From Shigella phage sb1, in sequence record PQ666539: a stretch of 64,000 nucleotides of DNA. One strand, written 5' to 3'. The position numbers were made by a program, and so were the translations under genes. Numbering within the stretch: position 1 is the first letter of the stretch; each line of letters begins with the position of its first letter. Of the stretch, positions 61,328 through 64,000 are shown piece after piece. Under the pieces are notes generated by a model that saw only the letters and a list, made by a program, of their open reading frames with translations, searched no databases and was not told the origin of the DNA.

Positions 61328-64000
61328 ATGGCTACTTTAAAACAAATACAATTTAAAAGAAGCAAAACTGCAGGTCAACGTCCTGCTGCTTCAGTATTAG
61401 CCGAAGGTGAATTGGCTATAAACTTAAAAGACCGTGTACTTTTTACTAAAGATGACCAAGGAAATATTATTGATCTGGGTTTTGCTAAAGGCGGTAGCAT
61501 TGACGGGAATGTTATTCATATAGGAAACTATAATCACACTGTTGATTATACTTTAAATGGCACCTTCACTCAGACAGGTAATTTTAATTTAATCGGTATT
61601 GCTCGAGTAACTCGCGATATTATTGCCGCCGGGCAGATTATGACCGAAGGCGGAGAACTTATTACAAAAAGTTCAGGTACATCACATGTTCGTTTTTTCG
61701 ATAGCAATAGCCGCGAACGCGGAATCATTTATTCACCGGCTAATGATGGATTAACTACACAAGTACTTAATATCAGAGTTCAAGACTACGCCGCTGGTAG
61801 CGAAAGCACTTATGCATTTTCAGGCAATGGCCTATTTACTTCACCTGAAGTATCAGCATGGAAATCTATGTCAACTCCTCAGATTTTGACCAACAAAGTC
61901 ATTACTAATAATAAATCTACAGGTGATTATGACATTTATTCGATGGCAGATAATGTTCCACTGTCTGAAAGCACTACTGCTATTAATCATCTCCGTGTCA
62001 TGCGTAATGCAGTCGGTTCTGGCATTTTCCATGAAGTTAAAGATAATGATGGAATAACTTGGTACAGCGGAGATGGGCTAGACGCTTATCTTTGGTCATT
62101 TACATGGAGCGGCGGAATTAAATCGAGTCACTCAATTTCTATCGGTTTAACACCTGGCAATAAAGATTATTCAATACTAGGACCATCTAGTATTGCTTTA
62201 GGGGATAATGATACTGGATTTAAATGGCATCAGGATGGATATTATTTCAGCGTCAATAATGGAACGAAAACATTTTTATTTAGTCCTAGCGAAACAACTA
62301 GCCTAAGAAAATTTGTAGCTGGATATTCTACTAACGGAACCGATTTAACTACTCCTCCTACTGAAAACTATGCTCTCGCTACTGTCGTGACATATCACGA
62401 TAATAACGAGTTTGGAGATGGTCAGACTCTTTTAGGATATTATCAAGGTGGTAGATATCATCATTATTTCCGCGGTAAGGGTACTACAAACATTAATACT
62501 CACGGCGTTTTGTTAGTTACTCCTGGTAATATTGACTTTTTTGGCGGCTTAATTAATATTAATGGTAGAAATAATGCTTCGACATTACTATTTAGAGCTA
62601 ACACAACTGGTAGTAGCTCTGTTGATAATATGAACATACGCGTTTGGGGCGATACGTTTACTAATCCTAGTGTAGGTAATCGTAAAAATGTCATGGAAAT
62701 TTCTGACGCAACTAGTTGGATGAGCTATATTCAAAGACTTACTACTGGTGAAGTAGAAATGAACGTCAATGGTTCATTTGAATCATCCGGTGTTATTGCT
62801 GGAAATAGAGGAGTTCATACAACAGGCGAAATTTCATCTGGAGCGGTGAATGCGCTTCGCATTTGGAACGATGACTATGGTGCTATTTTCCGTCGTTCAG
62901 AAAACAGTCTTCATATTATTCCGACTGCTTACGGTGAAGGTAAAAATGGAAATATCGGTCCACTTCGCCCGTTCCGTATGCCTTTAGATACAGGTAAAGT
63001 AAGTATTCCTAATATGGATTTGAGTCATACTACTTTTGATGAAAATGGTTCTATTAAATTTACTAGTCACGGAGCAGGCGCTGGCGGTTATGATATTCAG
63101 TATGTTCAAGCAGCTCCTATTTTCCAGGAAATTGATGATGACGCTGTAAGCAAATATTATCCTATTGTTAAACAGAAGTTTCTAAACGGTAAATCCGTTT
63201 GGTCTTTAGGTACTGAAATTAGTTCAGGTACATTCGTTATTCATCATCTGAAAGAAGATGGTTCACAAGGCCATACGTCTCGTTTTAATCAAGACGGTAC
63301 TGTTAACTTCCCAGATAACGTTCTGGTCGGCGGCGGTGAAGCTGCTATTGCTCGTAATGGTAATATTTTCTCGGATATTTGGAAAACGTTTACTTCAGCA
63401 GGAGACATTACAAATATTCGCGATGAAATAGCTACCCGTGTTGCTAAAGAAGGCGATACGATGACCGGTAAGTTGACTTTATCTGCTGGAAATGATGCCC
63501 TTGTTTTAACTGCAGGCGCGGGTGCTTCATCGCACATCAGTAGTGATGTAGGTGGTACAGGTAACTGGTATATAGGCAAAGGCGGCGGCGACAATGGTCT
63601 AGGTTTTTATAGTTACATTACACAAGGCGGTGTATACATAACAAATAATGGCGAAATATCGCTTTCTCCTCAAGGTCAAGGAACATTTAATTTTAATAGA
63701 GACCGCCTTCATATAAACGGTACACAATGGGTTGCGCATAAATCTGGCGCCTGGGGTGACCAATGGGGTTTAGAAGCTCCTATATTTGTAGATTTTGGAT
63801 ACGTCAGCAATGACTGCTATTATCCTATTATTAAAGGAAAATCTGGTATTACTAACGAAGGATATTTTTCCGGCGTAGATTTTGGTATGCGTCGTATCAC
63901 TAATAACTGGGCGCAAGGTATTATTCGTGTAGGTAACCAGGAAAACGGTTCTGACCCACAAGCTATATATGAATTCCACTCTAATGGTACTTTTTATGCC
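61328..64000 (+). CDS. 37: Long tail fibre distal subunit gp37, 5' portion (runs off window end); distal region diverges from T4
   Basis: MATLKQIQFKRSKTAGQRPAASVLAEGELAINLKDR... recognised as the gp37 N-terminus; frame open to the end of the window. Confidence 0.85.
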   Translation, partial: MATLKQIQFKRSKTAGQRPAASVLAEGELAINLKDRVLFTKDDQGNIIDLGFAKGGSIDGNVIHIGNYNHTVDYTLNGTFTQTGNFNLIGIARVTRDIIAAGQIMTEGGELITKSSGTSHVRFFDSNSRERGIIYSPANDGLTTQVLNIRVQDYAAGSESTYAFSGNGLFTSPEVSAWKSMSTPQILTNKVITNNKSTGDYDIYSMADNVPLSESTTAINHLRVMRNAVGSGIFHEVKDNDGITWYSGDGLDAYLWSFTWSGGIKSSHSISIGLTPGNKDYSILGPSSIALGDNDTGFKWHQDGYYFSVNNGTKTFLFSPSETTSLRKFVAGYSTNGTDLTTPPTENYALATVVTYHDNNEFGDGQTLLGYYQGGRYHHYFRGKGTTNINTHGVLLVTPGNIDFFGGLININGRNNASTLLFRANTTGSSSVDNMNIRVWGDTFTNPSVGNRKNVMEISDATSWMSYIQRLTTGEVEMNVNGSFESSGVIAGNRGVHTTGEISSGAVNALRIWNDDYGAIFRRSENSLHIIPTAYGEGKNGNIGPLRPFRMPLDTGKVSIPNMDLSHTTFDENGSIKFTSHGAGAGGYDIQYVQAAPIFQEIDDDAVSKYYPIVKQKFLNGKSVWSLGTEISSGTFVIHHLKEDGSQGHTSRFNQDGTVNFPDNVLVGGGEAAIARNGNIFSDIWKTFTSAGDITNIRDEIATRVAKEGDTMTGKLTLSAGNDALVLTAGAGASSHISSDVGGTGNWYIGKGGGDNGLGFYSYITQGGVYITNNGEISLSPQGQGTFNFNRDRLHINGTQWVAHKSGAWGDQWGLEAPIFVDFGYVSNDCYYPIIKGKSGITNEGYFSGVDFGMRRITNNWAQGIIRVGNQENGSDPQAIYEFHSNGTFYA

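Follow-up and report, generated by a model that had tools for sequence, protein, structure and literature searches.

Gene 37 at the end of a 64-kb stretch of Shigella phage sb1: a mosaic shaft of a long tail fibre that very probably belongs to the gp38-adhesin type

Does a distal tail-fibre gene that differs from its T4 counterpart tell which receptor a phage uses, and to which type of fibre does such a gene belong? This question is raised by the end of a 64,000-nucleotide stretch of Shigella phage sb1 (sequence record PQ666539), called the window hereafter, where gene 37, encoding gp37, the distal subunit of the long tail fibre, begins at position 61328 and is cut by the window end. A preliminary description of this DNA had named the gene and had taken it for the host-range determinant of a phage probably using a different receptor or a different adhesin arrangement. 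Textbooks have recorded since the 1980s-1990s that most T-even phages use gp38 as their adhesin. With high confidence, we assign positions 61328-64000 to the 5′ 81% of gene 37 from a Tequatrovirus of the pSs-1/PP01 group, with a fibre of the gp38-adhesin type. The identity of the gene, its position in the operon, its mosaic ancestry and a distal shaft that is T6-like rather than T4-like can all be observed within the window.

On the forward strand, positions 61328-64000 translate as a single stop-free frame of 891 codons, which begins MATLKQIQFKRSK and continues past the window end. The ATG at 61328 is preceded by a GAGG Shine-Dalgarno motif (61320-61323) and by the TAA of gene 36 (61317-61319). 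Its product aligns from residue 1 to 891 with positions 1-853 of the 1000 in the profile of PHROG 1699, 'long tail fiber protein distal subunit' (E=0, 1098 bits), and the gene directly follows rnh, 34, 35 and 36, which stand upstream on the same strand and in the same order as in T4. Together with 95% amino-acid identity to the gp37 of Shigella phage pSs-1, these matches agree with the name given in the preliminary description. The absence of a stop codon, also pointed out there, is confirmed and was to be expected, because the homologues are 1102-1104 residues long, leaving approximately 212 codons beyond base 64000. The final 24 kb of the window share 95% DNA identity with Tequatrovirus genomes, e.g., Ec_YwIITB1, sb2 and Shigella phage pSs-1. 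The gene and its domains are as follows.

61328-64000, forward strand: first 891 of approximately 1103 expected codons of gene 37 (long tail fibre distal subunit), identified by the open frame, PHROG 1699 and identity to homologues; cut by the window end
61328-61507, forward strand: conserved N-terminal domain (residues 1-60), identical in large part to T4, T2 and T6 gp37; by analogy with T4, the putative gp36-joining end
62579-63013, forward strand: mid-shaft domain (residues 418-562), homologous to the gp34 C-terminal region according to Pfam and PDB matches
63467-64000, forward strand: distal shaft segment of T6 type (residues 714-891), similar to T6 gp37 and without a T4 match; it holds the peptide quoted in the preliminary description

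Residues 1-60 are 88%, 83% and 82% identical to the gp37 of T4, T2 and T6, respectively, and up to 100% identical among the 120 best homologues. Divergence from T4 begins at about residue 62, and identity over residues 61-713 is 27-35%. A BLASTP comparison with T4 gp37 (NP_049863) covered 797 columns, 16% of them gaps, at 34% identity and stopped at T4 residue 788; for residues 714-891 BLASTP found no match in T4 gp37 at all. This last segment is 56% identical to residues 689-869 of T6 gp37 (E=6e-62), a stretch that immediately precedes the Peptidase_S74 domain of the T6 protein. The peptide GITNEGYFSGVDFGMRRITNNWAQGIIRVGNQENGSDPQAIYEFHSNGTFYA, quoted earlier as an example of sequence differing from T4, corresponds to residues 840-891 (63845-64000) and thus lies in the segment unmatched in T4. 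The conserved first 60 residues and the difference downstream therefore stand as they had been described, and alignment with T4, T2 and T6 gp37 did not show high T4 identity throughout the in-window part. The divergence itself is real, but it was misplaced when called receptor-proximal: it runs from about residue 62 through the whole shaft, and the receptor-proximal residues, approximately 212 in number, are outside the window.

The sole Pfam match of the in-window protein is PF21446 (Gp34_trimer; residues 450-549, E=2.4e-8), and residues 418-562 of pSs-1 gp37 match the T4 gp34 structures PDB 4UXE, 5NXF and 5NXH with E values of about 1e-11. Neither Collar (PF07484) nor Phage_fiber was matched by the 891-residue window protein, and both were found in T4 gp37, where Collar occupies residues 816-863 and the two tip domains together span residues 816-937. 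A self-BLASTP of the in-window protein detected no internal repeat.

The fibre type was also assessed from relatives. The 120 best gp37 homologues are 1018-1109 residues long, except for one record marked partial (865 residues), and 119 of them carry Peptidase_S74 (PF13884), the exception being that same partial record. PF13884 is likewise present in T2 and T6 gp37; T4 gp37 lacks it, having Collar and Phage_fiber instead. Residues 910-1102 of pSs-1 gp37 match the gp37 chain of phage S16 in the gp37-gp38 complex PDB 6F45 (E=4e-44). In all eight relatives inspected (pSs-1, sb3, Ec_YwIITB1, PEC04, KNP5, PE37, SH7 and a contig from ERR6183312), a gene of 257-264 codons starts 31 nucleotides after gene 37 and is followed by the holin gene t. 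Pfam families GP38 (PF05268) and Gp38_N (PF21721) were confirmed in this downstream gene of pSs-1, Ec_YwIITB1 and ERR6183312; T2 and T6 gp38 also match both families, and T4 gp38 matches nothing. The gp38 proteins of the relatives are 94-99% identical to one another, SH7 excepted, and the receptor-binding domain of the ERR6183312 protein is almost identical to that of PP01 gp38 (PDB 9V85), which binds OmpC of E. coli O157 (PMC12892980). These matches make a gp38-adhesin arrangement of the T2/T6 type very probable for the fibre of the window. From these relatives we infer the receptor, gene 38 and the S74 domain at the C-terminus, none of which falls within the window.

How such a fibre would work is known from T2-type phages, in which the gp37 trimer forms a beta-helical rod with a proteolytically processed C-terminus, a single gp38 monomer docks on the gp37 tip via its N-terminal helices, and hypervariable loops of the gp38 polyglycine sandwich touch the outer-membrane receptor (PMC3157838, PMC12032242, PMC6851490). 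By extension, the conserved first 60 residues of the sb1 protein would attach the shaft to gp36, as the architecture of the T4 fibre suggests (PMC3157838), and the long mosaic middle would form the rod of the trimeric distal half-fibre. The C-terminal residues past the window end, approximately 212 to judge from every close relative, would comprise the tip on which one gp38 monomer docks, and, after it, an intramolecular chaperone of the Peptidase_S74 type, to be removed by cleavage. The receptor would be recognized by gp38, encoded approximately 31 nucleotides downstream and, in the relatives, of the OmpC-binding PP01 type.

On this model, the 891 in-window residues would represent the gp36 junction and the shaft only, and would not be the host-range determinant, because it is the hypervariable loops of gp38 that contact the receptor in T2-type fibres. 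The role assigned earlier to the in-window stretch is therefore better given to gp38 (PMC3157838, PMC12032242, PMC6851490). Of the two possibilities raised there, a different receptor or a different adhesin arrangement, the latter is made likely by the T6-like distal segment, the S74 domain of the homologues and the downstream gene in eight of eight relatives. A different receptor is not implied, because the gp38 of the relatives is nearly identical to the OmpC-binding gp38 of PP01 and the tip of T4 itself also uses OmpC (PMC5221442). The difference from T4 is thus one of adhesin arrangement and not necessarily of receptor class, and it is not possible to deduce host range from the portion of gene 37 that the window contains. 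Most T-even phages combine a mosaic gp37 shaft with a gp38 adhesin, T4 being the exception, as reviewed in 2011 (PMC3157838).

The ancestry of the gene was examined against two nucleotide reference alleles, that of pSs-1 and that of the contig from the Logan assembly of ERR6183312 (contig L013, whose gp37 is protein P0001). A megablast search with gene 37 returned 624 phage records, 153 of them covering at least 80% of the query, with a best full-length identity of 94% (sb3 and pSs-1). Compared with pSs-1 gp37 (YP_009111063, from NC_025829; 1102 residues), the identity given above extends over all 891 codons without gaps (94% in nucleotides); the best match in a collection of 5.8 billion proteins was P0001, at 94%. 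Resemblance changes along the protein: the proximal 350 residues track pSs-1 at 98-100%, and residues 446-540 and 601-850 track P0001 at 99-100%. The following blocks were distinguished.

61778-62227, forward strand: mosaic block of pSs-1 type, 98.7-100% identical in nucleotides to pSs-1 versus 70-91% to the ERR6183312 contig
62528-63127, forward strand: region of two short patches (residues ~401-445 and ~541-600) without a good single database allele, read as mixed parental types
63128-63877, forward strand: mosaic block of ERR6183312 (P0001) type, 99.3-100% identical in nucleotides to the ERR6183312 contig versus 85-98% to pSs-1

Nearly every base of the two patches matches either pSs-1 or the ERR6183312 contig, and we read them as fine-scale mixtures of the two parental alleles. 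Because only 17 of the 2673 nucleotides of the gene match neither reference, gene 37 is best regarded as a recombinant mosaic of known alleles, of an already known and ordinary kind, rather than as a new allele class. Modular shuffling of T-even fibre genes has long been described (PMC3157838), and an allele that can be pieced together from public sequences is a finding of little consequence. Local mosaicism typical of the genus was also seen elsewhere in the window: a hypothetical protein of 205 residues encoded between the sheath and tube genes (5763-6377) and the product of denA (44842-45249) are 100% identical to their pSs-1 counterparts, and the products of neighbouring genes are 94-99% identical.

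The other fibre genes carry premature stops. In-frame stops were found in gene 34 at 56717, 56786, 57647 and 59156, in gene 35 at 60109 and in gene 36 at 61230, all six being TAA; in gene 36, the relatives have TCA (Ser) in place of the TAA at 61230-61232. The start codon of gene 34 (55607-55609) is CTG, and it is ATG in T4, T2, T6, pSs-1, sb3 and Ec_YwIITB1. A 27-mer spanning a gene 34 stop had no exact match in viral_contigs. When the whole window was searched by tblastn with pSs-1 proteins, 31 distinct in-frame stops (TAA, TGA and TAG) and no frameshifts were found in orthologues of essential T4 genes that are intact in other respects. Beyond the fibre genes, these included terS, terL, the sheath gene, genes for gp22, gp23, gp27, gp29 and gp48, alt, rnlA, nrdA and others. 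Most of the premature stops stand in place of GAA (Glu) or GGA (Gly). As written, this genome would be unable to make a virion.

To characterize these changes, differences in the window were polarised with two relatives, pSs-1 and Ec_YwIITB1. G>T and C>A together make up 295 (24%) of 1206 window-private changes, versus 5% and 7% in the pSs-1 and Ec_YwIITB1 lineages, respectively. In coding sequences, 14% of the private G:C>T:A changes are synonymous, 76% non-synonymous and 11% nonsense, close to the 9%, 79% and 12% expected at random; of the private transitions, 81% are synonymous. Changes of the G:C>T:A class account for 26 of the 27 window-private stops found in coding sequences and are spread evenly along the window, and no sequence context was enriched around their sites. 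Most likely, this layer is a technical error (oxidative-damage-like or arising in the consensus) or some other non-biological alteration.

Stop-codon suppression or recoding was considered and rejected: all three stop codons were created, the genuine gene ends are also TAA, and the changes fit the random expectation for G:C>T:A. Basecalling errors tied to motifs at modified cytosines were likewise unsupported, no context being enriched at the changed sites. Nor was any meaning attached to the absence of stops from gene 37, which is unremarkable because, at approximately 1.6 stops per 1000 codons, only about 1.4 would be expected in 891. Ten private substitutions in gene 37 fall outside a T6-like patch at codons 14-20; six of these are G:C>T:A (at 61542, 62409, 62508, 62537, 63426 and 63539), and all six are non-synonymous: G72V, A361E, G394V, V404F, A700E and R738S. 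Because the window carries this error-like layer, single amino-acid differences in any of its genes, including these six, should not be interpreted biologically.

Split essential genes are annotated in close relatives too, namely those for the major capsid protein, hoc and nrdB in Ec_YwIITB1 (PQ356294) and gene 34 in sb3 (PQ666541) and sb2; sequence assemblies from this group of phages may often be error-prone. The base counts of the window are peculiar in that A and T are exactly equal (20530 each, with C at 11720 and G at 11220). Such parity over 64 kb is odd and is probably a coincidence.

Some of these observations weigh against a gp38-adhesin fibre. The S74 domain, the gp38-docking tip and gene 38 are all outside the observed sequence, which stops at codon 891; tail-fibre loci recombine often, gene 37 itself being mosaic, so that its 3′ end, being unseen, might conceivably differ in type; and the premature stops in genes 34, 35 and 36, if taken literally, would make fibre assembly impossible. 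A T4-type fibre, in which gp37 bears its own receptor-binding tip and the product of gene 38 is merely an assembly chaperone, might be argued from the 88% identity of the N-terminal 60 residues to T4 and the 33-35% identity over residues 200-700. However, the T4 alignment stops at residue 788, short of Collar, residues 714-891 are T6-like and unmatched in T4, the window protein has no Collar or Phage_fiber match, and the listing of the 120 closest homologues gives neither domain for any of them and S74 for 119. The probability of a T4-type fibre is almost nil, and we consider it close to refuted. A second proposal would be that the locus is a new host-range variant in which the mid-shaft patches, together with the private substitutions, confer a new specificity. 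The best protein identities of the patches among the 120 homologues are just 80% (residues ~401-445) and 85% (residues ~541-600), no phage record exceeds approximately 90% identity over 62450-63450, and a 32-mer from a patch had no exact match in viral_contigs, metagenome_contigs or genome_contigs. Yet the patches mix two known alleles, with just 17 bases of the gene foreign to both; they lie in mid-shaft, approximately 500 residues from the tip; specificity in this fibre type maps to gp38 (PMC3157838); and about six of the ten private changes outside the codon 14-20 patch are of the error-like class. A new specificity encoded here is therefore very unlikely.

The premature stops might also be real, the genome being defective and gene 37 a relic. 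The 31 in-frame stops in essential genes, including four in gene 34 (which also has the ATG>CTG start), one in gene 35 and one in gene 36, would be consistent with this, as would G:C>T:A changes unfiltered by selection. However, virulent T4-like phages cannot persist as defective genomes, and transitions in the same lineage are predominantly synonymous, the pattern of a functional genome that evolves normally. Furthermore, the aberrant changes are substitutions only, of one class, uniformly distributed and without a context motif, which fits a technical error layer, and gene 37 itself is stop-free over 891 codons. We consider a non-functional locus unlikely, with a small probability. Alternatively, the G:C>T:A changes and nonsense codons could be real, which would mean that a T4-like phage population was captured after a burst of 8-oxoguanine-type mutagenesis and before selection; within gene 37 itself, the patches could represent a new shaft variant. 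Such readings we regard as extremely improbable. We therefore retain a mosaic gp37 shaft, very probably of the gp38-adhesin type, overlaid by what are most likely errors.

The upstream fibre genes and their putative promoters are arranged as follows.

55565-55572, forward strand: T4-type late promoter box TATAAATA before gene 34, found by pattern search
55607-59476, forward strand: orthologue of gene 34, in T4 order
59485-60600, forward strand: orthologue of gene 35, in T4 order
60632-60639, forward strand: T4-type late promoter box TATAAATA before gene 36, found by pattern search and seen in the sequence
60663-61319, forward strand: orthologue of gene 36, in T4 order

The pattern search found no late promoter box between genes 36 and 37. 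Since a late box precedes gene 36 and none precedes gene 37, both genes are probably transcribed together from the promoter of gene 36. The interval 60601-60639, which separates genes 35 and 36, holds a GC-rich hairpin and a T-run (gggagccttcgggttccctttttc) with the late box immediately after them, and this looks like a terminator/promoter pair dividing the proximal and distal fibre transcription units. The three longest antisense open reading frames over gene 37 (64-101 residues) had no PHROG match, and an Rfam scan of the whole window yielded no family at gathering score.

Compared with known systems, the window protein shares with T4 gp37 (NP_049863) the N-terminal 60 residues and a remote, colinear similarity of 33-35% through about residue 700, including the gp34-like domain, but has no similarity to the Collar, needle or head of the T4 tip. 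T4 further differs in lacking an S74 domain in gp37 and in using gp38 as a chaperone, not as an adhesin (PMC3157838). With T6 gp37 (AP018814), it shares the N-terminus (82%, including Q17) and residues 714-891 (56%), whereas the shaft between residues ~62 and 713 is essentially unrelated, save for a short match at 33%. The pSs-1 group (sb3, Ec_YwIITB1, KNP5, PE37, SH7 and PEC04) has the same gene order, 34-35-36-37, and continues with the gp38 adhesin and holin t; the window differs from pSs-1 in that residues ~351-891 are closer to the ERR6183312/P0001 allele and in a few private substitutions, mostly G:C>T:A. The region homologous to the tip complex of Salmonella phage S16 (PDB 6F45) starts approximately 19 residues past the window end, so that the window does not overlap this solved structure; the complex nevertheless provides a structural model for the missing tip, and the gp38 of the relatives matches S16 gp38 (E=6e-53). 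With PP01, an OmpC-binding phage of E. coli O157:H7, the comparison differs in that the adhesin type of the sb1 phage, whose gene 38 would lie beyond the window, is predicted from relatives. The likeness is otherwise close: over the full query, PP01 gp37 shows 84% identity, with the same Pfam layout, and the closest relative of the distal in-window part of gp37 encodes a gp38 with a receptor-binding domain nearly identical to that of PP01.

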